Shown here: in pieces, positions 1,658-40,185 of the stretch
Layout of the letters: each line of letters begins with the position of its first letter
Numbering within the stretch: the stretch's first letter is position 1
Assembly (NCBI GenBank): GCA_051294905.1
Contig: CM119371.1
Location: 8,496,001 to 8,560,000 of the forward strand
Reading direction: 5' to 3'
Source: Botryllus schlosseri
Taxonomy: Eukaryota
Length of the DNA: 64,000 nt
Made by a program: the position numbers and the translations under genes
The notes under the pieces: generated by a model
The model's database searches: none
What the model was told of the DNA's origin: nothing
Seen by the model: the letters and a program-made list of their open reading frames with translations, nothing else

Positions 1658-3782
1658 CAGTGGTTCTTAACTTTGCCTCTGCGCCTGTCGATTTTGAAGG
1701 GGGCGGTAACGCTCAGGGGGTGATATGGAGGGGAGCTGGACTCAAAGGGGCGCAATAGGCACGCTAAAGAAAAATGGCTTCGTATTAGATGATGTGCATG
1801 GTAATAAGACATATCCTTAATGAGTATTCAGAGCAAATTAACATCCCACAGAACATGTCAAATCCCGAAAATTTTGGTCGATGTTTGCTACGTATCATTT
1901 TATAAATGTAGTGGCTTCTATAATTCACGTAAATCGAATTGTGCGTACCTTTAGAGTCCGCTTGTACATAAAATAAGTTTTGACGCTTTGTGCAGTCGAA
2001 TTGTCGAATGTCCTCGAGCGCGATTAAGGGGAATAGCAAGTCAAAAACCTAACTCTTAGATGGCTACGCCCAACACCATGAAATTTTCGCAGTCGCTACA
2101 TGTCGCTATGCTTCATAAAAGAAAACACAAAAATTTTTCTACCCTGCAGATTGTGGATTTGAAGGAGAAAAAAATGCACCGACACGGGGAACACAAATCT
2201 AAAACTTGTAAAGCCGTTTTTCCAATCTAATGCCTTCTTTAGGAAGTACTAGGACAGTTCTGTGTTATGCTAAAATTTGAAGGAATATGTGCCACCCTAT
2301 TAGCAGAAATTTCATTTTGAAATTTCAAAATTTTCGAATTTCAAGTCATTTTTAAAAAAAAGTTTGCTGTGAATCTCTGTAATTCTAGACCTAGACCAGA
2401 GGTTCCCAACGTGGGTGATATCGCCCCCAAGGGGGCGATTTGGCGGTCTAGTGGGGGCGAAAATAACGAAGGGGCGATAGGGGCGAAAACAACGAAGGGG
2501 GCGATATGGGGCTATATTGGAGTCGGGACCGTAACTACCGCACCCCAAACCCCCCGATTGGGGTTGGGGGGCCCGAAATCGAAGGAAGCCCAAAATTATT
2601 TAGTGAATTAACATGAATGATAGAGTAATTTTTAGAAATTCATGTTAATTTTTCAAAAAAATTTCGCGCTGCGCGCCATTTAGTATTTTCATGTATCTTG
2701 ATGTTGGGGTCCCCGGACCCCGTCACTCAACAAAACTACGCAAGATTCATGGAAATGGGGACTTCGGCGTCGGCCATTACTGCGCCACGACGCACCAAGA
2801 CATATGAAGTTAGCGGCCATGTAACTTGCGACTCCGAGAAGTGTGTCAGAATAATCAGCAGCGAGAAGACCTTGGCCGAAAAGGAATGCCCTTGTGCTGA
2901 CCGAAGACTTCGATATATATATATATATAAATAGCTGGTTCGTGGTACAGAACTTGAATATAGCTTTCAATACAACATCCATTGTAGCAGTATATTTATT
3001 AAACTCGAAGACTTTTCGGGTGCCTCTTTTCAAGAGTTATCGGCACACTAAAGGGATTTAAACAGATTTAAAAGCAAAACCAAAAAGGCGAAGTATGACG
3101 CAACATTCAAAATCACAGACCATGAAATTCGCATTGTATCAATGGCAACAATAACAAACTACGAAGTACACGGACATACGGTACTATAGTAGCAGCACAA
3201 TTTGTAAAAAAAACAATTGCACGCACGGAACAACACGCACTAATGAGAAATTTGTAGGTTATAGAGGAAATCTTTCTGTCTGCATAAAAGAGGTTTGCTC
3301 AACTGAATGATAGTAGACTGCAACACTTTTAAATGAAACACAGACCTACCACGCGCAATGACAGTGAACATATTGTCATCATAGTGCTGTGCACAGGCAA
3401 GGTTTTCGCTCAGATGCTGACCGATTGACGAAGCATATGCTTGGTAATCATCATAGCAGTCTGTTTTTGCAGCCAATTTGCACTGACGTGCGAGCTCCGT
3501 GCGATCATTTGCGCATGTTTTCGACCGAATGACCGAATTTTGTATTTGGCGCCTAGGGCGACCAGGCCACATAAACATTGATGACCATCGAAATCACGCG
3601 ACGTGATTCTTGGGGACGAAGCCCTCAGAAATTTGGTTTATCACGCTATGGGAGTGCAAGACAATCGTTTTTAGGGGGCTGACGAAGTGCTGTTACGTCC
3701 CTACCTCTAACCCACAGCTTTTATTACATTCCTTACAATATGATATGGGGGGCGCTGGAGGAAAAAAGGTTATGAACCACTG
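1658..3782. mobile_element. Non-autonomous hAT element containing further nested MITE ends (2397; about 2523-3703)
   Basis: CAGTGGTTCTTAAC...GTTATGAACCACTG termini; flanks ttctatat / ttttatat (7/8 TSD). Confidence 0.7.
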
Positions 3783-11133: not shown

Positions 11134-11206
11134 ATGGCGGAAGGGGGTGAGGACCGAAATTCTGGGGGCACAGGTGTGCCATCGTCAGTATTACCCGGGG
11201 AAAGCA
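11134..11206 (+). CDS. NLR N-terminal cassette A, coding exon 1 (MAEGGEDRNSGGTGVPSSVLPGES)
   Basis: Good Kozak context (ccatcATGG), donor GCA|gtaagt in phase 1, paralogous to 17484-17559 including the flanking non-coding sequence. Confidence 0.7.
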
Positions 11207-11425
11207 GTAAGTAAAACTTAAATATTTGAGTTCCTATTTATTTCTTCAACATTATCCATATAAAATCATGTTTAAGTCACTGAAATATTATATTATTAGC
11301 CCGCTGCATAATCTAGTACTGGCAAGACATTATGGGAAGTTTCCATGATGCAATTTGATTACAAATGCTTATAAATGAGTATACATCGGAACTCGGAACT
11401 ATTACAATATTCTCGGGCGTCTCAG

Positions 11426-11575
11426 GATCAGCAAGTTTGGCAGTAGTCGAAAACGTCAATCAACGGATCATGAACAGCTCGGTTAACGTTGTGACGGAAG
11501 ATCAGATTACCGTGAACAAGATCACCAACAACTACACCATGGATTCTGGAAATGAAGCAATTCCAACAGACCAAC
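11426..11575 (+). CDS. NLR N-terminal cassette A, exon 2 (Asn/Val-rich motif)
   Basis: ctcag|GA acceptor and CAAC|gtgagt donor, 150 nt, phase 1-1. Encodes SASLAVVENVNQRIMNSSVNVVTEDQITVNKITNNYTMDSGNEAIPTDQ. Paralog of 17783-17926. Confidence 0.75.
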
Positions 11576-11619
11576 GTGAGTGTTTTACCAGGAACTTTGT
11601 AGTGCAGCTTGTCAGACTA

Positions 11620-11900
11620 TGGATTACTAACCTACAGACAAGTCCAGTCGTTACGTTCTGGCAAGCATTACACTTATTGCAGATCAAACCACAACACCAA
11701 CCATGCAATACTATCAATTGTAACGGACTATTACAAAACCATCAAGCAAAAAAATGGCTGCAGCATTTTCATCGACCTCCTCAAAGCTTTCGACACTGTG
11801 AACCACAGAATTTTAAGATACAAGCTTGAACACTATGGTATCAGGTGTATTGCAGCAACTATACTTAAAAGCTACCTGGCAAACTGCAAACAATTTGTTA
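11620..11900 (+). mobile_element. CR1/L2-type LINE reverse transcriptase fragment
   Basis: IFIDLLKAFDTVNHRILRYKLEHYGIR...LKSYLAN motif. Confidence 0.85.
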
Positions 11901-12175
11901 AACAATTTGTTGAACTGATCAAATTTAGTATGGCAGCAGTACAGAACGACGCCGCGCGCTCTGTAGCCACTATACCAGCATTAGGATTAGTCTTAGTGCA
12001 ACCTACCTTGAAATGAAATGATGTCCCGTCCAATGTTCTTTGCTATTTTCAAACAAGTTTGGTGAAATTTGTCACAAATGTTAAACACTCAGCAACGGGA
12101 ATGCGGATTTAAACTTGGCACAAGACACTATATGCATACTATTAGACCAGGGATGGGCGACCGGCGGCCGTAGAA

Positions 12176-14604
12176 TAGGGTTACCATCAGACATGGGGTG
12201 ATTACTTCATGAATGTAATCGATTGCGATTACGATTACTTCTGAATCACGCGATTACGATTACGATTACGATTACAGCAAAATCAGGAAGTAGTCGATTA
12301 CGATTACGATTACATTGGAAAAGTAATCACGATTACTCACGATTACATTTATTTTGCATGGTAGTAGTTATATTGGTTGGAAGACAATACATGGATTGCG
12401 CTGAAAAGGCCTAATGATATAACAGCTGTCTTTACAAAAGATGGGACATTTCTCTGTTACGTCATAATGTACCTATTGCCCATTTTATAGAGGACGGTTT
12501 ATCCCACACAACGTTTTGCATTCTTGCCAGGTCCATAACTGCCGCACCCCAAATTCCCCAATAGGGTGCGGAGAGTGGTTGCTGGGGAGGGTACTCGCAA
12601 AAGTATTTCGTAAACCAACATAAATTATAAGAGTATTTTCGATAGATTTCATTAACTTGGAAATTCTCTTTAAGCTTTGCGATTTAAATGTCTCTAGATA
12701 GCTTGATTTGAAAATGCATATGTCTCCCCTTCAAGAAATAGGGCTTGTATAATTCATAGTAATCGGCATTTCGGTGCCAGTCAATACCGCTCCTTGACAC
12801 ATCAAAAGACATGTGAAGTTTCGGCCAACACGAGACTCCACGAAGTGTGCTACTAAAGAAAGACATTGGCCGAAACTTAGATAATGTTTCCATTGTCAAT
12901 AGCCGGGCTGGGTGGGCGTGACTAACAGTCTATTCCTTTCAATCTGAGCCCACGATGCAAATGCCACCCGGGCACCCACAGAGGATTAGACATGAAAATT
13001 TGTGCGTGCGTCTCACGCAAGTTTTTCTTGTATTCTGCTATGTTTGGGGCACTACAACAATATCTTTTGGCTATATAACAGACCGGAGGTCACGAATTAA
13101 CAACATACAATAAAGTAATTATTCCAAGATACCAGATGTTATAATTATGAATTACGCGCCCCCTGCTCTTCAGGTAAATCTGGCCATCGGGCGCTGAGAT
13201 AGGATTAAAAACGCAATATAATGCAATTACCAATATTATTGATTAAATTCAATCTTCAACTTCAAAATTGACTACTCTATGAGGGCCCAAGACCAATGTT
13301 TGGGTGGGGGAAACTTTTGCTGTTTTGATCCTGATTCTAGCTACAACCCACGCTAACATGGTATATAAGCCGATGGCTATGGCGGCAGGTCCAAATGTTC
13401 AATAAAGAATTGTGACATAGCGATTGGCGCCCGTTTTGAGAAGAATAATATGAAAATACGAGAACGTGAACTTAACATTCTGCCGTCAACTTGATGCGGA
13501 TAATGTAATGCAAGCTTCCATTACGAAAACGGCAAAACAACGGCTCGGTTATGATATATATCAGCAGCTGTTGATTTTAATGCTTCGTTGTGGAAACCGA
13601 AATGTTTTTTTTGACGAGTACCAAATTTCAAACCTTTGTCTGGTGTACGTTCGTACCATATAGGCCTACTGCTCGCCAAGCAGCACGGTTAAACTGCAAT
13701 TAACTATAGAATTAGAACTATTACATTCAATAGTTTAACTATAAGCAGAACCAAACATCAATACAAAAGTTGCTATTTTGACTTAGGCTGAGATTGAGAG
13801 GTGATTAATTATCCTGTTGCGAAGTAGTGGTGTCTGAAATGTATTGATAACCCGATATACAGCACGGTGGCTTTTCTTACAATCACACTAATGTACATCG
13901 AATATCTATTTACTATGTGTGGACACTTCTTACGCAAAGACGAGCAAAGCTAATAGGCTACCTCTGACGTAATAATGACCAGTGGCATTTCAAATCAGAC
14001 GTTTACGCTCTGAATAACTGGTATATTATCTCTTCCTTGTTCACGAGTGTTTAGTTTATGTCACAGTCCTTGGACAAATACAAAGTAATCGTTCTTTCAC
14101 AAAGAAATCGATTAAATATGGGAAGTAGTCGATTACGATTACGATTACTTCGGGATTTTTTCGAATGTAATCGATTGTGATTACGATTACTTGAAAATGC
14201 TGTAATCGTCGTAATCGATTACGATTACTAATCGCGATTACCCCATGTCTGGTTACCATACGTCCTCTTTTAAGAGGATTTGTCCTCTTTTTTGACTTTT
14301 TTGAACGTGTCCTCGGAGGACGCCCTTTTGTCCTCTTTTTTGAGATTTTGTCCTCTTTTTAGAAAATTTAGGTCACATTTAGAGCAAAATGCGAGTGATA
14401 TGCCGTAAATTAGCACAGAAGGGACGCTCCGGCGGATATTTCGGAGTGAAAGACGGTAATTTGAGCTCTGAGCGAAAAGGTGACCTTTTTTAAAGCAACT
14501 ACCTAGCAAATTCACCGATTTTTGAGAATTCTTCTCCGGTTTTGCAAGTCTCAAATTTCTGAAAAAGTGTCCTCTTTATAGATTTCCAAAATATGGTAAG
14601 CCTA
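12176..14604. mobile_element. hAT MITE (TAGGGTTACCATACGTCCTC family), split by a 2-kb insertion in its left TIR
   Basis: Perfect TSD ccgtagaa; right end ATATGGTAAGCCTA; relatives at about 17290-17412, 35837-36174 and 38123-38445. Confidence 0.88.
12188..14251. mobile_element. Non-autonomous hAT element with (GATTAC)n subterminal arrays
   Basis: CAGACATGGGG...CCCCATGTCTG TIRs; perfect TSD gttaccat. Confidence 0.93.
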
Positions 14605-15555
14605 CCGTAGAAGGGAATTTGTGTGGCCTTCGACACATAATTCAATTAGTAAGTGTTGGCGGCCGTCGACATGCAAATAGAAATTACAAATTCACTCCCA
14701 AATGGTTCAAGAGATTTTAATTATTCTTAAAATTTTCTTCGCGCTCCGCGCAATTCAACATAATTTCATTTTTCGAATCTGATATAGTAGTATGCCCTTC
14801 TCAATATGCGCAGGAATCGGAATCGTGTGCTCCTCGCGAAATAAATTTGCTGATGGTACATTTGGGCGATTTCAATATATTTCCGCTATTGCCACTACCG
14901 ATACAATCGACAATCCTGATGGGGTGTCAAGAAATATCAGCATGCAACAAAGTGACTAATGATGCATTATCATTTATAACTTGCCCTAAATTTTCGAAAG
15001 CACTCCCTCCATGAACCTACCGGTGAATCTGATTACATGGGCGGATAAATGATAAATATTTGAAAGTAATATGTGATATTGCTACTATTAATTACGGAAT
15101 TCATTCGTGAATCTGAAACATTTTCGCGCCCAGCGCGACAATATGCAATTCCAGCCACTAATCATAACATTTCCACTCGCGATTTCCACTCGCGATTTCG
15201 ATTGCGTACAATAGGCCGTTGTGAAAAGTAGAATAGTCCGGAGTTCAACGGGAATGGATATTGTCAGATTAACATAGGTAAATTGCGCCCAGTCTGTTCA
15301 TTACTGGTATGCCCTGGAATGCGACCTAAGGCTATATAAGTAATCGAAATGCGACCGTGATTAGCAAAAAGATGCCTACCTCGGTATTAGATGATGTACT
15401 ATTTTAACATGACGATAAGTGAAGGGGGGATCAGGGGAGCGCAATTTTTTTGACCATCGCCAAGGGAGGCGCATGCCCAAAAAGGTTGAGAACCCCTGTG
15501 CTAGGCAGTCAGCAATCACGGACAGCATGGAGGAGAAAAAACCGGGGGTTCAGAC

Positions 15556-17084
15556 CAACGTTCCCTCTAATTTTTCAAGAGTCTGCACAAACACGTCAAC
15601 TCACTGCGCAGGCCCTCGGACAACAGTGCGCAACCACCCTCCATTAGGGTGATAAAACTAACCCATACCCCCTACGGCTCTAGGCTTCTTCCGGTACTTA
15701 TCATGTACTTTGGGTGCCCATTTAGTAGTAGCGTCCCTAAACGCGCGAAGCGCGAAAAAAATCTATAATTCATGATTGCATCGGCCAATATGATCGGGAA
15801 TTGCATATATATTATATTATATTATATTATTTTATATATTATATATATTGCATATATTTCTATCCTCTCCCCGCTCACATAATCAGATTTATCGGTAGAG
15901 CTGATCCAGTGAGGTGTGTTGGAATAGATAGGCTCTCTAAATAATAATAACACATCTTCGGGCGTACCCGTTGATATAATGACTTCGTTACATGATGCTA
16001 TTTCGTGCCCCCTATCTGCTATGTCAAAAGATATTGAAATCGCCAAAACGTACTAAAGTAAAAGACGTACACGAATTCAAATTGGTACCTCTTAACTGGA
16101 AAATAATGTTCCCTCGATATGGCATTTGTCTTGTTGTGGGACCCGCATCGCCAGGACAGGAACATTCGGCGCCAGCCATTTAGGCGCCCATGGATATGGT
16201 CAATTACACATATATTGGTATATATCGAAGTTTTCGATCAGCACCGGGCAGCCTTTTTCGCCCAAGGTTTTCTCGATGCTGATCGTTCTGGCGCCCTTCT
16301 TGGATTCGCATGTTACATAGCCTTTAACTTCATATGTCTTAACGCGTCATGGTGCGGTAATGGCCGACGCCCAACTGCCCGTTTCTATAAATCATGCCTA
16401 ATTTTTGTTGGGAAAGGGTACCCAATAATCAGATATCTTACAATAATAAAACGAGCGTAACGCGAAAAAAAATTCCTGAAAAATTTCAAAAGATACACCA
16501 TGATTTATGGTAATTCTCGAAATAATTTTGGACCCCCTTCGAGCTTGGCCCCTCCAATTGGGGGTTTGGGGTGCGAAAGTTACGGTCCTGAGTAAATCCT
16601 ACGCAATGTTCATGCCATGCGAAGAAGACTATCATTCGTTAGTTTATCGCAGATTAACTTCGAGCTAAACCATTGTTATTCATAACTTTGTTAAACCAGG
16701 TTATTTCGCCTTTCCCAGAAAGTAATGCGCTATTGAAATGATATCAGTATCGCTCACGTGTACAAGGCCATACCAAAAAAATATCTTCCGTGAGGCACAG
16801 GTCATTGTGAACTCTAATTTCCTCACGGAGCGCAATAGTTACCTTTGCGGGGCGCACTTGTACCCCGGTTTCAGACTTCAGTGATAACACTATTTGGCCC
16901 CGGCAATGTTCCATCTTAATTTTCACGAATCTGTGCGCCTGCGTGGTCCATTGGACAACAGTGCGCAACAACTATAAAAAAAAACATCATTTCTGATTTT
17001 CTGTGCGCAACGTAGATTTTCTGTGCGCAGAGACCGTTTCAGCACTGCGCATTTGCGCACGTGCGCAGCTTAGAGGGAACATTG
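15556..17084. mobile_element. Non-autonomous hAT element with an internal inverted copy of the 26609-27437 family
   Basis: CAACGTTCCCTCTAA...TTAGAGGGAACATTG termini; perfect TSD gttcagac; short relative near 51070-51249. Confidence 0.9.
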
Positions 17085-17483
17085 GTTCAGACTAGATGAC
17101 CTTACTATAAACGCCGTATCGTATCTCCGTCGCCAAAGCATCTCGATGGTGCAGGCAAAACAGAATACCATAACTCTCTCTCTCTCACTTCGTGTTCGGT
17201 TGACTAAAATAACGCCAACTTTCCGGCTCACCTCTCGAAATAGCCACCGGAACGTTCGTTACTTCAATGCTGATTTAGTGAATCTCAGTCTACGTTTGCC
17301 ATATATTGAACCAAAATTATCCAAAAAAGATTACATTTGGGCATCCTCCGAGGACACTCTCAAAGAAGTAAAAAAAGGACAAATTCTCTTAAGTGGACGT
17401 ATGGTATCCCTAACATAGAATGTTATTATGTATTTTCGGTATTGTCATATACGCTAGCTAATTAGTACCACGTTATCAATACC

Positions 17484-17559
17484 ATGGCAGAAGGGGGTAA
17501 GTATAACAATTCTGATGTCGCTGATGTCAAGCCTACATCAATATCGCCCGAAATAAGCG
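17484..17559 (+). CDS. NLR N-terminal cassette B, coding exon 1 (MAEGGKYNNSDVADVKPTSISPEIS; may end at 17496)
   Basis: accATGG start. The donor at the position homologous to cassette A is G|gcgagt (17560). An alternative consensus donor G|gtaagt lies at 17497. Both are phase 1. Confidence 0.7.
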
Positions 17560-17782
17560 GCGAGTAGCTCGATGTCTGTTGTATTGAGCTCAGACTACTT
17601 AAAATACATGATTATTTATCCATCTGAAACAGCTTCGAAGTTCTTTAAATACTGTACATTTTGCTCGTTGCGCTAATAATATTCCGGAGGATATCGAAGA
17701 AAATAGAAGAATTCATGTTATTTTCTAATAAGGCTCTGTATGGAACCTGGCACGCAGTACAATAACCATGTGTTTTTCTTAG

Positions 17783-17926
17783 GATCCGCAACTTTGGCCG
17801 AAGGAGAAAATATCAATCTGAAGTTCACAAAGAGCTCTGTTAACGTCGTGGCAGGAGATCAAATCAGTGCAAAGATCGTCTACCATGTTACAGGTGCTGA
17901 TGGAAAAAAACCTTCCGGGATCAAAA
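17783..17926 (+). CDS. NLR N-terminal cassette B, exon 2
   Basis: tttttcttag|GA acceptor and AAAA|gtgagt donor, 144 nt, phase 1-1, in frame with the NACHT exon. Encodes SATLAEGENINLKFTKSSVNVVAGDQISAKIVYHVTGADGKKPSGIK. Confidence 0.78.
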
Positions 17927-24109: not shown

Positions 24110-24576
24110 GCCAAGGCCAAGGTGGGTGTCTGATTCCAAAGAACAGGAAGTGGTTTCGAGTCCGACCGAGGTTGACGTCCTAATTCCGATACTTAAGTGT
24201 TGGAGGTTTACCTAGGCCCCTCCTCGCCACCTCATCCGCGTCAGCGGTGTCATCCAAAAAGCCTAGAGGTGGGCCGTGCTATAAGTCGACAGTTACGGAA
24301 AATAAGAAGAATATCGGCCTTGTGTAAATGACAATAGTAGTCGATAAACACCATGTATACCCCAAAACACACAAAAATAACAACAAGTGGTTTCGACACC
24401 TTTCTTTCTTTTCATAGTATCGCAACTTTGTGGTGTATTGAACTGATAAAAATTGCTAACAAACCGAACCGAAAGAGAACCATACCAGAATTAGTTTTAT
24501 AGCATTTTCTTTTAATGACTTTTACAAATTTTGCGCAATACTTGATAACAGTTACAATAAAAATTATTTTGTACAG

Positions 24577-26118
24577 GCGTAGACTACAGGAAATTGATAA
24601 CGGTTATAAACGAAAATACTCGACAACAAACGGAAAGTAGCATTCGCGAAAACTTCAAGAATGAATTTCTTCACGAGCCTGACTTTGAAGTTTTCCCCAA
24701 GATGAAAAAATACAATGTTGATGATTACTACAAAGGTCGTCTTCCCGAAAACAGTTCGAATGAAGAATCTTTTCGTGATTCTAGAAGGAAAGCTTATCAA
24801 AATCAGTTGATAGAGGAAGTCGGTTTTTACCGTCAATCCGACAATGGCGGTAAACCGATAACAATGGAAGAGATAATGGAATGGATGGCAAAGTCGGAGA
24901 AATTACCTTCCGGTGAAAAAGTTGGTTACACTGCAATCGTCGCCTCTGCAGGATCGGGCAAAACTACTCTCGTGCGTAGAATTGCTCGGAGAATGGTCGA
25001 AATTCCCTCCGCGAAGGAAAAGCATGAAGCGGTTCCGTTAAGGAAATCTAATATATTTCGTAGACTTATCCGAAGCGCTCTCGGAACTTCTTCCGGGAAT
25101 AAAAAAAGTAGACACTCTTTTTCCGAACCGAAACCAAAGGCAAAAATGGTACATTACGTCGAATTGAAGAACATGAAAAAAGAAATCTGTATAAAATCAT
25201 CGAAGTTTTTATTCGGCGGTCTGTTTGAAACTGAGTATGAAGAGGATGAAGCTTTCAAATGGCTGCTTAAGAATCAATCTGAAGCAATTATCATTTTTGA
25301 CGGGCTTGATCAAGTGAAGTGGGACTTTGAGGAGTCTACAGTACGAAATATCAAAACGTTTGAAAGAGCGAGCACTTCGACCATCATGTACAACATCCTA
25401 TCTCGCAGAATCCTTCGCCAAGTCAAAATCATAGTGGCGTCGCGTGAATTCAAAGTCTCCGAGTTACCGGCGCAAGCACGTCCTGAAGAAATAATCACAC
25501 TCAATGGCCTCACACTGGAAGACGCTTATAAACTGTTTACTTTTCTGCTCTGCGAGAACGGGCAGCGTCTCTGGGAGAAGATTGAAATCATGTCACCACG
25601 ACTATTACAACTAGTATCGGTCCCGGTTTTCCTGATTTTGATAGCAGTGGTGATGGGAATCAATCCAGATATACCTCCTCCGTCTACCGTGACAGAACTA
25701 TACAGCAGGATCCTGTTAGTCTTACGGGGTGTGGAAAATATCCGAAAACGCAAAGAAATCCTCTCAATAATCAACAAATTGAAGGTAATGGCGTTTGAAG
25801 GCATGGAAGAGGGGCGAGTCGTATTCTACAAAGCAGATTTGGATCGCTTTGAAGTTTCTGCGGACGAAGTACAGGATTTGATGACGAAAGTGCCTAACAA
25901 CAACATCCTCAGCTGTCACTTGATGGAAGATGACTTTACATTCTTCTTCTGTCATCAAAGCATGCAGGAATTTCTGGCAGCTAGTTTTATCTCGGAAATG
26001 GAGATCGGAATGTTCTCTCGCTTTGATGGCAAACATCTACATGAGAAACGATGGTCCGTCGTTCGAAGATTCGTTACAGGCATCGTTTACATGAAATCTA
26101 TTAGCGACCTTCACAGTG
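24577..26118 (+). CDS. NLR-type NACHT (STAND NTPase) exon of a multi-exon immune receptor gene
   Basis: 510-aa ORF with Walker A (AIVASAGSGKTT), Walker B (AIIIFDGLDQ), sensor 1 (IIVASR), VPVFL, winged-helix FCHQSMQEFLAA and HD2-like RWSVVRRFVTG. Acceptor ttttgtacag|GC at 24577 and donor AGTG|gtaagt at 26119; both ends phase 1. Confidence 0.95.
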
Positions 26119-26608
26119 GTAAGTAATCATGGTTTTACGCGGCTATTCTGCCGCAGTACCTACCTGATTATTATGGGTCGCCTATAGTTTATCATGACTT
26201 TGATGGTATTGTCACAATCGAAGGGGTGAAATAGTCGAAATATCTTAAATTCATACACGGCTAGTAAATAAGTCTTCAGTCGGTTAAATAAAACTTATAT
26301 ATCTAAAATGGGCCTCAAGTTCGCAGATAATTGAGTGTGAGCGCTACACTATGTAACATTGTTTGTTTGTTTCGGGTATTTATGGTGTCTGTCGACTAAA
26401 ATGGTCATTTACACCAGGCCTATGTTTTACATTTTTGATTTCGCTTCCGCCGACTTGTAGCACGGCCAACTTCTAAACTTATTGAACGATAGCGCTTCCG
26501 CGAACGAGATGGCTAGGATGAGACTAAATAAACCTCGAACACTTAGGTATGAATTCTGGACTCGATCTTTGTCGAACGTGCGATATTGATGCGTATGAAA
26601 TGCTCATG

Positions 26609-27437
26609 CAGGGCTGTAACTGCCTCACCCCTTAACCCCCGCGCGTTTTCAAGTCGCCAAGTATCTTGCTTATTGGGTACCCTTCCCCCAAGAAAAAATA
26701 TGCAAGATTTAAAGAAATGGGTATATCGACGTCGACCATTACCGCGGCACGACGCACAAAGACAGATGAGTTTTAGGCCATACAACATGCGACTCCAAAA
26801 AGTGTGCCAGAACGATCGCAGCGAGAAAACCGTGGCCGTAAAGGACTTCCCTTATGCTGGCCGAAAACTTGGTTATATATACAAAATACATATACGGTAG
26901 GTTTATTTGTCCATATAGGCGCCTAAAAGACTGGCGCCGAATGTTCCTGTCTTGGCAATCTGAACCTCACCAGACAAATACGATCATGCAGGAAAAAGTT
27001 ACATGCAAGTGAAGAAATACCAATCCAGAATCGTGTGATCTTTCAGTCTAGTACGTTTGGGCGATTCTATATTTTTTGATATAGCAGAAAGGACGTCACG
27101 AAATAACATCATGTAACGAAGTCATACCAAAGGGTCCGCCCGCCTTAAGATGTTCATTTTTATTTTATTTACAGACTGTACAGTTACAAACACACCTCAC
27201 TCAGCTCTACCGGTAAATCTGATTACGTGAGCACAGAGAAGCTAAAAATTGATAGCAATATATATGCGATTCCCGATCATATCGACCGATTCAGTCATGA
27301 ATTACATCGATTTCTCGCGCCTCGCGCGTTTAGACGAGGGAAGCCGACTCACGACTCACCAGCAGAAGTCCGGTCTATCACCATGTGGGGGCCCAGGGTG
27401 TTTTTATCGGGGCTGACGAAGTGTTGTTACGGCTCTG
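26609..27437. mobile_element. hAT-like MITE in the NACHT-LRR intron
   Basis: CAGGGCTGTAAC...GTTACGGCTCTG termini; perfect TSD tgctcatg; homologous segments at about 2520-2930, 15640-16590 and 34980-35235. Confidence 0.9.
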
Positions 27438-27534: not shown

Positions 27535-27893
27535 GCAAGAAACATTACGAATACCGGTACAACGACATTGCGTATTGCTTGACAGTCTCGGATCAAACAC
27601 AGAAGCAGCAAGTTCTATCTCAATCGCTCCTTTCACAACTTCACGATAAGTTTGAATACGAAGACGATCGCATGGAAATCTATACAGCAATCTACGAATC
27701 GGGCGACGACAGTCTAATGAAAGATCTTGCCGTCATCGACGCGTCTCACATCCCATTGAATCGCGATGAAGCTCATATCATTGGATCGCTTGCAGCAAGG
27801 AATGAAAACCTTGGTTATTTGAATTTATCGTTCTGCAGTATTGACGACGAGCTTTTGAGCATCATTGCCAGGTGTCTGGTAAATCGAATACAA
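27535..27893 (+). CDS. NLR post-NACHT/LRR exon (acceptor at 27535 or 27586)
   Basis: Both acceptors are phase 1 and compatible with the NACHT donor. Encodes YTAIYES and an RI-like LRR (NLGYLNLSFCSIDDELLSIIARCL). Donor CAA|gtgagt, phase 0. Confidence 0.85.
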
Positions 27894-32539: not shown

Positions 32540-33935
32540 TGCCTGCACGCGATACGATAGTGATTTGCCACCACCCCCTTTCTCGCGTAAAGTTTAAGAT
32601 GAACTTTTGAATATGGTCACTTGCTCTGGTGAATTTAGTTTTAATGATACTATGTAGAGACAAATCGATGGTTTAGCTATGGGATCCCCTCTCGTCCCGA
32701 TTTTAGCAAATATATTTGTGTGATTCCATGAGAACAAATTATTTGCAGCTGATACAATCAAAAAACCTTTTATGTATCGTCGATATGTGGACGACACCTT
32801 CGTCATCTGCCATAACGAGATAGAGTTTGACGATTTTCTAATCTAACTAACTTGAATGCGCTACATCCCTCATTGAAATTCACATTTGAAAAAGAGTGCG
32901 GCAGCTCGTTACCGTTCTTGGACGTTCTTGTAGAGAAACAGGGTAATAACATCGTTACTTCGGTGTACCGGAAACCAACATTTTCCGGACAATATCTGCG
33001 TTGGAATTCGTTCAGCCCAAACCGCCGTAAACTGAATCTAATTGGAACATTGGTACATAGAGCATTGATGATCTGTTCGGATGTAAAATTAAACTCGGAA
33101 CTCGAATATATTCGAAAAATTTTAATTGATAACGGTTACCCGGAACATATCATCAAGCGCTCTATGGACAGAAAACTCAACAATTTCAATGCCAGCAATT
33201 CCCAAAACACGAACGAATGCCCTGAGAATAATGTATACATACATTTACCGTGGTTGGGTCCCACCTCTTCTCGTTTTGAGAAACAGTTGATCTCCGCCGT
33301 AGATCGTTGTTACGACAACGTGAAAACGAATGTTGTATTCACTACCAAACAACTACTTACTTCCTGCAACGCGCAAAGATGTTCTTCCCACTTCTCAACA
33401 AAGCAATATAGTTTACGAATTTAAGTGCCACTGTGATTGTCGATACGTAGGAAGAACAACTCAGCGCTTGCAGGAACGTATCAAACAACATGTACCGCGC
33501 GTTATTAGACTACGTAAATTAAATTCCCAGGAACAGGCCGCTGAAACTGACCTGAGGGTGTTCGAACACAATCAGGCCGTGGCAGTGAACTGAGCTGAGC
33601 ATGCTACTTGCGCCAATAACTATTATGACGACAGACTCTCAATTTAGGGTAGAGATCGCACACTTTTCCACTTGTCCGCGCTGGAATCGACATTCATTAA
33701 GATCCATCAACCACGCTTATGCCAGCAGAAGGAACGCTTGCTTCAGCTAAATATTGGCCACTAGCTGCGCTCGCGGGTTGTCTGCATTTGATGTTGTTTT
33801 GTTTCTATGACGTCACAATTGGCTTTATGCAATGTAGTTATATGCAAGTTTTTGGAATTCTCTTTATGCCGACGATTACCCCTGAAGAGTGTTGGCTCGA
33901 AAAGCTTCGGATTTAATATATTTGTAATAGGAATA
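32540..33935 (+). mobile_element. Penelope-like retroelement, 5'-truncated (RT + GIY-YIG), decayed
   Basis: QIDGLAMGSPL, YRRYVDDTF, LHPSLKFTFEKE, LPFLDVLV, VYRKPT and NIVYEFKCHCDCRYVGRT...RIKQH; stops and frameshifts. Confidence 0.93.
33875..33915 (+). ncRNA. Candidate minimal type I hammerhead ribozyme of the Penelope 3' repeat
   Basis: CC-CTGAAGA-G..C-GAAA-AGC-TTC-GG: catalytic core boxes, palindromic stem III (AAGCTT) and the expected position after the GIY-YIG ORF. Confidence 0.65.
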
Positions 33936-37331: not shown

Positions 37332-38789
37332 GTAGTACTTATCATCCAGTATTAGTTGCATTGGATATATGGAACGTTCTTCCGTCGCCATCGCACGTTT
37401 ATCATTGAATTCTGCCGCACAGTATGAGTCCCCTCCACATGAATCCACATTCCATGCCCGGGATATCTACCGCAGTTGCGGGGTTCGTGATCCCTGGTAA
37501 TTTGTTTATCTAAAGCAGGGGTGTCAAACTCAACTGGCGTCACGGGTACGGATTTAAATCTTCACAGCAATTGCAGGCCGGTCCAGTCAAATGATGCCAA
37601 AATATTTTCTCAAAATACATGCCCTTGCTTTTCACTTGAATGCTCAGTTATAAAGCTTAGACACGTTATATTTATTGCGGTATATCACGTGCCATGTTGA
37701 TCTATTCCATCAAGATCTTTATTCGCAATCAACCGAATTGGCACGATCACGATGATTGGCCTGTTAAATAGTTTCATAAATTCCCGACGATATAGGTTGC
37801 CATGTTGCTATGATTGCTTTGTTTTAGTCGGAATTTGACAATATAGTTCTGTGTGTGTTGTGAGGAATACAAGCGATTTAACTGTACTCGGAGACGTTGA
37901 AATTTTGTCCATTACTTTTGCATCGTGATTCGGGTTTCCCCAGAAGCCAAGGAGATGTTGAGTCACAAGCGCAAAAGGAGTGCGACCACAGATATTTAAA
38001 TTATATTTTTGTGTCATAATTATATTATCCACTTCTGTAGATAACTACTTTGTGGTCCGTTTCCCCACGAAACGGTGAACTCACTGAGCACTTTTTTTGC
38101 CTTCTCGGAAGTTAGTGTCAATTAGGGTTACCATATTTTGGGAATCTGAAAGAGGACACTTACACAAATTCAGACTTACGACAAAGGAGTAAAACCCAGA
38201 AAAAATTGATAAAATTATTCCAAGTTTAAAGTTGGCCTAATAAAAAAGGGTCCCGATTCTGGCTCAACTCCCAAAAGACTCGCCGAACCGTTACTTCAGT
38301 ACTTATTTCCAATTTCTCAGTTGAATTTTCACATACATTCAACCAAAAATTTCAAAAAAGGGGACAAATTCTCAAAAAGATGTCATTTGAGCGTGCTGCG
38401 GGGACACTTTCAAAAAAGTAAAAAAAATAGGACGTATGGTAGCACCAGTGTTATTGGCAGTGACTTGTTGCTGATGGTGACTTCAGTGTTACTTCAACAC
38501 CACGGTCGGATGCTTATAATGTGGCCTATGAACAATGAACATGTTCGACATTTTCTGACTTGAGAGAATTTAAGTGTTAAGTCGTACTAAAAATCTAAAC
38601 ATTTGTTAAAAATGTGACGGATAATGCAGCCACTTTTTTCAGAATCGCCTAGAAGGCCAGATGCGGCCCGTGGGTCGTACCCCTGATCTTAAGTATGTTG
38701 CAATGCATCATGGCCCCTGGTGAAATGGTCAACAATATTGGTCAGCATCATTGTAATACACAATAATAATAATAATAATAACAATAATA

Positions 38790-40185
38790 ACAAAAGAATT
38801 CTGAAGCAAAACACGGACGGCAAATGCAGAATGTGCCACAACCAAAATGAAACTGTAGCACATCTCATGTCCGGCTGTGGTGCACTTGCAGCTGCCGAAT
38901 ACACATGGAGACACAATAGGATTGGTCACTACATTCATCTTGAATTACGCAAACATTTTAACATCACCACTTCGACAAAAAATTGGTACGACTACAGCCC
39001 AGCACCAGTGACAGAAAACGAGCAAGTAAAAATTTTGTGGGATGTACCAGTTATAACTGACCGCGAAATCAGAAGCAACCGCCCGGATATAATCGTCAAA
39101 CTAAAAAAGAAAAGAGAATGCTTATTCATTGAACTGGCTGTCCCAGCTGATCACAACCTACTGCAAAAAGAATCAGAAAAATACTCCAAATACGCAGACC
39201 TCAAAATGGAATGTGAAAAAATGTGGCGATGCAAAATAAACATTGTACCGATAGTCATTGGCGCTACAGGAGTCGTGAGCAAAAAACTCATGAGACATAT
39301 CCAACAAATTCCGGGTAACGTTCGATTTGACATGATCCAAAAGATCACATTATTGGGCACTGTGCACATTCTTCGTAAGGCCTTGAATGCACCACTGGAC
39401 TAAAATTACACTTGTGAATCACAGCATGATTTCTGTAATTTCGATTCTTCATCTTCAATCATCTCTACCTCTGCTCTGTAACCCTTGCCAATTCTTCATC
39501 TGCTGCAATTCTGTAAACTTCTCCATGTATCGCATAGTAATAACAATTTGAATGTATTACTGAAATTTTAAAAATTTACTCCATTCTCGCCATTTTCCTT
39601 TGGGGGCAGGTTGCTCCCCGGATTATGTGTGTATTTACCAGTTTTACTGTGAATAAAGAATTTAATAAATATAAGAAAAGCAGAAAAGCAGTCCAAATAC
39701 GCAGACCACAAAATGGAATGTGAGAAAATGTGGCGATGCAAAATAAACATTGTACCGAAATTCATTGGCGCTACAGGGGTCGTAAGCAAAAAACTCATGA
39801 GACACATCCGACAGATTCCGGGTAACGTTTGATTCGACATGATCCAAAAGATCACGTTGTTGGACACTGTGCACATTCTTCGGAAGTCCTTGAGTGCACC
39901 ACTGGACTAAAATTATACTAGTGAATCACAGCATAATTTCTGTAATTTCGATTCTTCATTTTCAATCATCTCTACCTCTGCTCTGTAACCCTTGCCAATT
40001 CTTCATCTACAGCAATTCTGTAATTGACTTCTCCATGTATTGCATAGCAATAACAATTTGACTGCATTACTGAAATTTTAAAAATTTACTCCAATCTCGC
40101 CATTTTCCCTTGGGTGCAGGTTACTCCCAGGATTATGTGTGTATTGACCAGTTTCTTACTGTGAAAAAAAGAATATAATAATAAT
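38790..40185 (+). mobile_element. R4/Dong-like site-specific non-LTR retrotransposon 3' end (CCHC + restriction-like endonuclease) with a tandem 3' duplication
   Basis: CRMC...HLMSGC, YTWRHN, ILWD...NRPDI, IELAVP and KYSKY.DL; stop at 39403; about 39690-40165 repeats about 39180-39655; preceded by (AAT)n. Confidence 0.9.

Follow-up and report, generated by a model that had tools for sequence, protein, structure and literature searches.

In fungi, the NACHT-type NOD-like receptors (NLRs) of the NWD2/HET-S, HRAM, sigma and PP systems carry at the N-terminus a short, beta-prone motif rich in N, Q, G, V and I, and a cognate effector with the same motif is encoded beside the receptor, as described in the available portions of PMC4518210 and PMC12261475. 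In bacteria, the amyloid signalling sequences termed BASS, ∼25 residues long and defined by NLR-like/Bell gene pairs, occupy the N-terminus of STAND NTPases. The available part of Dyrka et al. (10.1101/2020.01.06.895854) describes NLR-associated amyloid motifs as enriched in Q, N, G, V and I, depleted in P and L, and conserved at G, N and Q. Among animals, amphioxus has RHIM-NACHT proteins, such as BF82280, and tunicates appear to lack RHIMs, according to the available sections of Kajava et al. (2014; PMC4262963). The innate-immune amyloid motif of the Drosophila proteins PGRP-LC/LE and IMD lies off the canonical RHIM tetrad, and the core of this cRHIM is quoted as VxxG in the available text of a 2026 review (PMC13506858). 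Ascidian NLRs have been described as being without an N-terminal domain (PMC11508797, available in part). Here we describe the NLR gene in a 64,000-nucleotide stretch of the Botryllus schlosseri genome (assembly GCA_051294905.1, contig CM119371.1, positions 8,496,001 to 8,560,000 of the forward strand; this whole stretch is referred to as the window), where two paralogous exons, A and B, lie 5′ of the NACHT exon and encode a ∼35-residue motif. A sequence-only reading of the window had proposed that this motif is an amyloid-type signalling element, on the premise that animal NLRs normally carry death-fold domains. That premise was too strong, given the amphioxus RHIM-NACHT proteins and the domain-less ascidian NLRs just cited.

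On the evidence of the genome searches described below, the motif exons are the N-terminal module of a very large, lineage-specific NLR family with well over 100 genes, probably an ascidian family. The gene plan, as predicted from these loci, is a short ATG exon (MAEGG plus ∼20 low-complexity residues), followed by a motif exon of 47–50 codons and then directly by the NACHT exon. In the window, the parts of this plan and the exon that follows them are located as listed here, with positions counted from the first nucleotide of the window.

11134 to 11206, plus strand: exon 1A of the distal module; starts with ATG, encodes MAEGGEDRNSGGTGVPSSVLPGES, ends in phase 1, donor GTAAGT.
11426 to 11575, plus strand: motif exon A of the distal module; translation SASLAVVENVNQRIMNSSVNVVTEDQITVNKITNNYTMDSGNEAIPTDQ, phase 1-1, acceptor AG, donor GTGAGT.
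17484 to 17559, plus strand: exon 1B of the proximal module; encodes MAEGGKYNNSDVADVKPTSISPEIS, ends in phase 1.
17783 to 17926, plus strand: motif exon B of the proximal module; translation SATLAEGENINLKFTKSSVNVVAGDQISAKIVYHVTGADGKKPSGIK, phase 1-1, acceptor AG, donor GTGAGT.
24577 to 26118, plus strand: large NLR exon; intact 513-codon frame with the pre-NACHT region, the NACHT nucleotide-binding domain, helical domain 1, the winged-helix domain and the start of helical domain 2 (HD2).
27586 to 27893, plus strand: next coding exon, with HD2 and a first leucine-rich repeat (LRR)-like unit; matched by tblastn with Styela proteins at 27579-27866/27923, E down to 8e-8.

Both motif peptides are encoded as the sequence-only reading had written them, and the exons it proposed for them are real, with phase 1-1 boundaries; what it missed were the separate ATG exons, each ∼220 bp 5′ of its motif exon. 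Exons A and B are 46% identical, with 21 of 50 columns invariant. The identity falls mostly in the first 30 residues, several of the differences within the conserved block are synonymous, and the flanks and tail diverge, again as had been claimed.

The genome searched was the window's own 495.5-Mb assembly of 219 contigs. The exon A query gave 83 matches (E ≤ 10) and the exon B query 138 (E ≤ 1), 89 of them at E < 0.01; every match to either query lay in an open frame, and the recurrence greatly exceeds what chance would give. Conservation of the motif beyond the window, on which the sequence-only reading depended, was borne out by the many NLR paralogs that carry a motif exon. The positions of NACHT exons came from two lists, in which 84 of 218 candidates had been scored for the window's NACHT exon and 94 of 224 for Pfam NACHT (all 94 above the cut-off). 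For 46 of the 83 exon A matches, a listed NACHT exon was present within 25 kb downstream on the same strand; placement on the wrong side occurred twice and on the opposite strand never. The exon B matches at E < 0.01 gave a similar picture: a NACHT/STAND exon lay within 25 kb downstream on the same strand in 59 of 89 cases, and none was found on the wrong side or on the opposite strand. As most of the NACHT candidates were unscored, these linkage counts are lower bounds. Ten strong ‘orphan’ motif exons were followed up by fetching 20 kb on the downstream side of each; seven of these stretches contained a NACHT exon (six detected by tblastn and one divergent, Pfam 1.4e-9); in the remaining three, matches to PHD and ZSWIM3_N were the only ones downstream.

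The arrangement of these loci along the contigs was also recorded. On the minus strand of C1:0.17-4.5 Mb lie the majority of the paralogs closest to the window's NACHT exon (79–84% identity), together with their motif exons, an arrangement that points to a large tandem array of NLR genes across the first 4.5 Mb of this contig. A further NACHT/STAND subfamily, divergent from the first and 25–64% identical to the exon of locus L047, is clustered at C1:16.4-17.3 Mb, C3:1.4-7.2 Mb and C9:3.9-4.2 Mb, and weak motif matches occur 5–7 kb upstream of several of its members. On the plus strand of contig C8 there are four motif exons, at 3863738, 3917728, 3973816 and 4008646, spaced 35–55 kb apart and matching exon B with E values of 1e-6 to 4e-10. 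No NACHT exon in any scored list accompanies them, and they are either candidate non-NLR carriers of the motif or belong to unscored NLRs.

The structure of the paralogous loci matched that of the window. In 29/29 paralog loci examined the motif exon lies between an AG acceptor and a phase-1 GT donor, and within the 1.5-kb flanks that were searched, an upstream ATG exon of the MAEGG type was present in 20 of 30 loci, ending in phase 1 with AGC A/GTAAGT or AGC G/GTGAGT (the slash marks the exon boundary). Some of the distances between motif and NACHT were as short as 188 bp and 454 bp (the latter from C9:4683221-4683337 to a NACHT match starting at 4683791), which leaves no space for a further domain exon between the two.

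The window gene itself is an NLR (a NACHT-type STAND NTPase), the one such gene on the plus strand of the window. Its NACHT exon is bounded by an AG acceptor (24575-24576) and a GTAAGT donor (26119), with phase 1 at both ends, and its translation includes the Walker A sequence GSGKT. Pfam matches were obtained to NACHT (1.2e-15), NOD2_WH (8e-6) and NB-ARC (2.6e-5). An AlphaFold2 model built from an alignment of 25 relatives had a predicted local distance difference test score (pLDDT) of 75 and a predicted template modelling score of 0.71, and the top structures returned for it by Foldseek were NOD2, NLRP3 and NLRC4 (E down to 1.2e-15). In this model the ∼105 residues that precede the P-loop comprise a single confident helix, a strand and stretches of disorder, which is not a six-helix bundle. 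Moreover, a Pfam search of the 137 plus-strand open reading frames (ORFs) of at least 35 amino acids between 8938 and 24637 found no CARD, PYD, DEATH, DED or TIR domain, RVT_1 being the sole match. The sequence-only reading is supported in that no death-fold or TIR exon precedes the NACHT exon, and the N-terminal effector domain that marks the death-fold/TIR classes of NLR (NLRC, NLRP, NLRD) was not found in the window gene.

To describe the motif, 30 motif exons were aligned (alignment A3). The consensus of the ∼35 residues is SAxLAEGENVNQxFINSSVNVVAGDQIxxNKxxxN, with invariant or near-invariant columns at S1, A2, L4, A5, G7, N9, S17, V19, N20, V21, V22, D25, Q26 and I27. The ratio of nonsynonymous to synonymous substitution rates (dN/dS) was 0.16 for columns 1–12 and 0.13 for columns 17–27, compared with 0.63 for the tail, at a dS of ∼0.75; the two conserved blocks of the motif are thus under purifying selection. 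This bears on the possibility that the motif exons are not part of the mature protein at all, being an untranslated leader, decayed remnants or an artefact of open frames. Two features of the window, described below, would be in keeping with that view, namely that module A belongs to another subfamily than the NACHT exon downstream of it and that exon 1B has a GC donor. However, open frames in 83/83 and 138/138 matches, the low dN/dS of the conserved blocks, phase-compatible splice sites at all 29 loci and a shared layout in annotated Clavelina models all speak for a coding exon, and we consider a non-coding origin scarcely credible.

The composition of the motif is distinctive. The residues N, Q, G, V and I make up 60.5% of the motif core as against 26.1% of the NACHT exon, and the core contains 0.1% proline, 1.4% leucine and 5.7% lysine; the description of the motif as proline-free and rich in N, V and I was accurate. 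Together with the N-terminal position on an NLR, such a composition, as read from the sequence, fits the criteria for NLR-associated amyloid signalling motifs (HRAM/HET-s, sigma, PP, BASS). An AlphaFold2 prediction for the motif from the 30-sequence alignment gave a pLDDT of 54.5 and no secondary structure, indicating that the motif has no autonomous fold.

A self-comparison of the column profile of the alignment revealed an internal pseudo-repeat with an offset of 17 residues (z = 3.4, the best of 23 offsets, matched by one of 2000 column shuffles). With this offset SASLAEGENVNQRFINS falls opposite SVNVVAGDQIHVNKIVI, and G-[ED]-[NQ]-[VI] and an aliphatic residue come into register in the two halves. 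The two halves may correspond to two rungs of a stacked beta structure. The HET-s r1/r2 repeats have an internal two-repeat organisation that resembles this arrangement; when set against the fungal motifs, the repeat found here is 17 residues long and contiguous.

Taken together, composition, position and repeat suggest that the motif may be an amyloid-like homotypic signalling module of the NLR family, a reading that we favour tentatively and at somewhat less than even confidence. Under this proposal the motif would be disordered in the resting receptor, and oligomerisation of the NACHT domains would crowd the motifs into an ordered parallel beta stack. Every motif would supply a pair of rungs, ∼17 residues apiece, in which G-[ED]-[NQ]-[VI] would occupy corresponding positions. 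Once formed, the stack would nucleate or recruit additional motif copies, carried by paralogous NLRs or by an adaptor. Signalling would be of the type seen in the fungal NWD2/HET-S, bacterial BASS and animal RHIM systems, although the motif would belong to another sequence family. A fuller version of this proposal would have the motif define a new chordate family of prion-like motifs, unrelated to RHIM and present on well over 100 NLRs, folding as a two-rung beta-solenoid, templating other NLRs or an adaptor and offered as alternative N-terminal cassettes in some genes; that all of these elements hold is on the unlikely side, though we take it seriously.

The same position and composition can also be accommodated by a closed oligomeric beta structure, in which the motifs would form a barrel or collar on the assembled NLR wheel and act directly, for instance at a membrane, with no templating. 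The motif is N-terminal on an oligomerising NTPase and its composition is beta-prone, and in plant CC-NLR (coiled-coil NLR) resistosomes an N-terminal funnel occupies a comparable position. However, reading the per-column residue lists revealed no clean alternation of hydrophobic and polar residues and no hydrophobic segment, and a pore is unsupported by any computed result. We therefore regard this structure as improbable.

A number of results weigh against the amyloid-like module, and these concern the motif itself, its relation to described families and the search for a partner. The pseudo-repeat signal is moderate, with p roughly 0.01 once corrected for the 23 offsets. The conserved acidic residues E6, E8 and D25 would stack like charges if the arrangement were strictly in-register. 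The disorder seen in the monomer model would fit any linker or linear motif equally well, and amyloid formation is not demonstrable from composition alone.

With respect to described families, the core shared by RHIM, PP and BASS3 (G-phi-Q-phi-G, or [IV]-Q-[IV]-G) is absent. The best-conserved stretch is S-S-V-N-V-V-A-G-D-Q-I, and in no register is there a Q flanked by aliphatic residues and followed by G. Pfam RHIM (PF12721) gave three matches over the genome, all below the cut-off and none at a motif exon, in agreement with the sequence-only reading, which had noted that the canonical RHIM tetrad was lacking. Among the E ≤ 10 matches of the 30 members there was no Pfam amyloid-motif family, RHIM included, and no Pfam family of any kind exceeded the threshold at the motif exons. 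A profile of the motif compared with the sequences of the PDB recovered no HET-s or RIPK chain (the best match, at E 0.48, was to a serine-rich adhesin), and a search of the ESM Atlas with the motif returned no usable match. The amyloid-type interpretation put forward by the sequence-only reading is consequently upheld in part: the composition fits the described bias, but no Pfam amyloid model matches and, as set out below, no partner effector with the motif was found.

That the motif is nevertheless a divergent member of a described family, whether canonical RHIM, cRHIM or the bacterial adaptor domain EAD10, draws on two observations. The residues V21-V22-A23-G24 satisfy the cRHIM pattern VxxG, with V21 present in 29/30 members and G24 in 23/30; this pattern is nearly information-free and too loose to discriminate. 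EAD10 (PF19954) gave weak matches to 3 of the 30 members (E 0.0098–0.1, profile positions 32–68 of 77), the best of them reaching 16.4 bits where the cut-off is 24.1. Another 17 distinct members gave no EAD10 match, and a genome search with the EAD10 model, like that with RHIM, missed every motif exon. Being weak and not recurrent, the EAD10 matches were treated as chance, and membership of any of these families appears very improbable.

The individual comparison systems show the same mixture of likeness and difference. The amphioxus RHIM-NACHT proteins (PMC4262963, in its available sections) and the window family both have an animal NACHT domain with a short non-globular beta motif in place of a CARD-like six-helix domain, but the amphioxus motif is a recognisable RHIM whereas in that of the window the [IV]-Q-[IV]-G core is absent and Pfam RHIM misses it. 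The Drosophila cRHIM proteins provide a precedent for an amyloid motif of animal innate immunity outside the canonical tetrad, and VVAG fits their pattern (PMC13506858, in part); their carriers, however, are not NLRs, and VxxG is too loose to establish kinship. As in the fungal systems (PMC4518210 and PMC12261475, as available), a short beta-prone motif rich in N, Q, G, V and I is N-terminal on a NACHT NLR; in those systems the cognate effector is encoded beside the receptor, whereas none was found for the window family, and the window motif does not match the Pfam models of the fungal motifs. BASS motifs, from the available part of the description by Dyrka et al. (10.1101/2020.01.06.895854), share with the window motif the N-terminal position on a STAND NTPase, the enrichment in Q, N, G, V and I, the depletion of P and L and the conservation of G, N and Q. 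They differ in length (∼25 residues as against ∼35) and in being defined by gene pairs, while the window motif has no known pair and, at 5.7%, its lysine is not depleted.

The sequence-only reading had envisaged a partner effector carrying the same motif, and none was found, either in a profile search of 1.84 billion representative proteins or at the orphan loci. The profile search gave 14 matches, none of them to a non-NLR protein with the motif. Twelve were ORF fragments of 40–124 amino acids, in which one motif exon is read into the flanking intron, and none was full-length. The other two were long proteins with internal repeats, which we read as bacterial and regard as chance matches. A word-indexed protein search of longer proteins with the two-exon alignment returned nothing at E ≤ 10. 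Of the ten orphan loci fetched, the three without NACHT offered only the PHD and ZSWIM3_N matches already mentioned. Of the 89 exon B matches at E < 0.01, 30 have no assigned NACHT exon; the NACHT lists are incomplete.

The failure to find a partner is what would be expected if the motif were instead an extended linear docking peptide, one that binds the folded domain of an adaptor, or folds back onto its own NACHT or LRR region in an autoinhibitory or regulatory role, with no open-ended stacking. The motif is short, unfolded as a monomer and located at the extreme N-terminus, and as it is common to many receptors these would converge on one adaptor. On the other hand, some 30 constrained residues in two blocks are long for a linear motif, and neither the proline-free composition rich in N, Q, G, V and I nor the 17-residue repeat would be anticipated for a docking peptide. 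We consider this explanation unlikely, if a genuine contender to the amyloid-like module.

The two 5′ modules of the window were then compared with those of the paralogs. Since exons A and B each have their own ATG exon, they form two complete 5′ modules and not two tandem internal exons. The phase 1-1 boundaries of the motif exons and the phase-1 acceptor at 24577 mean that either A or B can join 24577 in frame, and that A can join B. Motifs of the exon B type that are 72–83% identical to B lie 2–18 kb upstream of NACHT exons 79–84% identical to that of the window, and from these relationships the window gene most likely uses the proximal module, B. Over its first 36 residues exon A, by comparison, shows 89% identity to the motif at L033, a locus where the NACHT exon shares only 52% identity with that of the window, indicating that module A comes from another NLR subfamily. 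This foreign module (11134-11575; compared with loci L033/L034) sits 6 kb 5′ of the gene's own module. Judging from the exon phases, module A could serve as an alternative first-exon pair or be spliced in frame through exon B, so that three in-frame transcripts are possible: 1B-B-NACHT, 1A-A-NACHT and 1A-A-B-NACHT.

The donor of exon 1B, at 17560-17561, is GC (AGC G/GCGAGT), in contrast to the GTGAGT of the closest paralogs, L025–L027. Within exon 1B, after codon 4 and in the same phase, there is a GTAAGT at 17497-17502 that is specific to the window and was created by a synonymous AAA>AAG change. These two changes could reflect a switch of donor or the decay of module B.

Paired motif places are not confined to the window. 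A list collated by hand, from which ∼25 weak matches were left out and which is thus a lower bound, contains at least nine NACHT exons genome-wide with two upstream motif places on the same strand, for example at C1:11762576/11763734, C2:26859365/26859874, C2:39494759/39495504 and C1:16397420/16402293. At locus L023, which has two motif places, each motif exon has a separate ATG exon. The arrangement suggests alternative first-exon cassettes, by which one receptor body would be given different N-terminal motifs.

Downstream of the NACHT exon, the exon at 27586-27893 has an AG acceptor at 27584-27585 and candidate GT donors at 27879 and 27894. No Pfam family was detected in it, and the Pfam LRR families were absent from the 73 plus-strand ORFs between 26461 and 38016. 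Retroelement fragments are present at 11603-12016, in the intron that follows exon A (RVT_1, 3.2e-6), and at 32831-33590 and 38693-39403, the latter with an ORF that has a weak zf-RVT match. Within the second of these regions, a 197-amino-acid ORF at 32831-33421 has no family assignment and an overlapping frame at 33324-33590 has a weak GIY-YIG match. An interspersed repeat with similar open frames (...ASW.GNGRR....F..SC...), in all probability a transposable element, occurs in three copies, at 2689-3036 on the minus strand, at 16107-16460 on the plus strand and at 26543-26900.

Among named sequences, those most closely related to the NACHT exon are NLR-like models from Styela clava (30–32% identity) and Clavelina lepadiformis (26–29%), with other single-exon ORFs being 36–52% identical; like the window gene, the Styela and Clavelina models have no death fold. 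Annotated Clavelina NLR models start MAEQSTSSNVNITDAVLNQSPVIKDAENVTINYT, that is, with MAEQ and a ∼30-residue stretch rich in N, V, I and T; an acidic, serine-rich linker and the pre-NACHT region come next, an architecture that is the same as that of the window gene. Homology of the Clavelina N-terminus to the motif is marginal and is not claimed, the A3 profile scoring −0.6 bits at most and the shuffle z being 2–2.7 in three of four comparisons. Three Styela clava models (P0004 1–330, P0005 1–330 and P0006 1–85) begin with long tandem repeats of a ∼70-residue unit; these repeats abound in N, V, T, A, E and S, match no Pfam family and by eye are beta-solenoid-like. Their homology to the motif was rejected, as BLASTP found nothing, the A3 profile scored 2.4 bits at most and the shuffle z did not exceed 0.5.

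Within the portions of the full-text literature that were available, we found no description of this motif on tunicate NLRs, and the motif module as a family-wide N-terminal feature of NLRs appears to be undescribed. An animal NACHT with a RHIM instead of a death fold is already known from amphioxus, as the available sections of PMC4262963 report. Because ascidian NLRs have been reported to be without an N-terminal effector domain (PMC11508797, in its available part), their route of signalling is puzzling, and the motif exon provides a constrained candidate: a single small exon common to two divergent NACHT/STAND subfamilies. Should the motif be a docking peptide, it would point the way to an adaptor shared by a receptor family whose members number more than 200. 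If instead it stacks in an amyloid-like manner, the coupling of NLRs to amyloid, so far seen in fungi, bacteria and the RHIM-NACHT proteins of amphioxus, would reach, by way of a new sequence family, a lineage in which RHIMs are said to be missing; and if it represents a new chordate family of prion-like motifs, the NLR-amyloid coupling of fungi and bacteria would be shown to operate in chordates too, and the signalling of the ‘domain-less’ tunicate NLRs would be accounted for.

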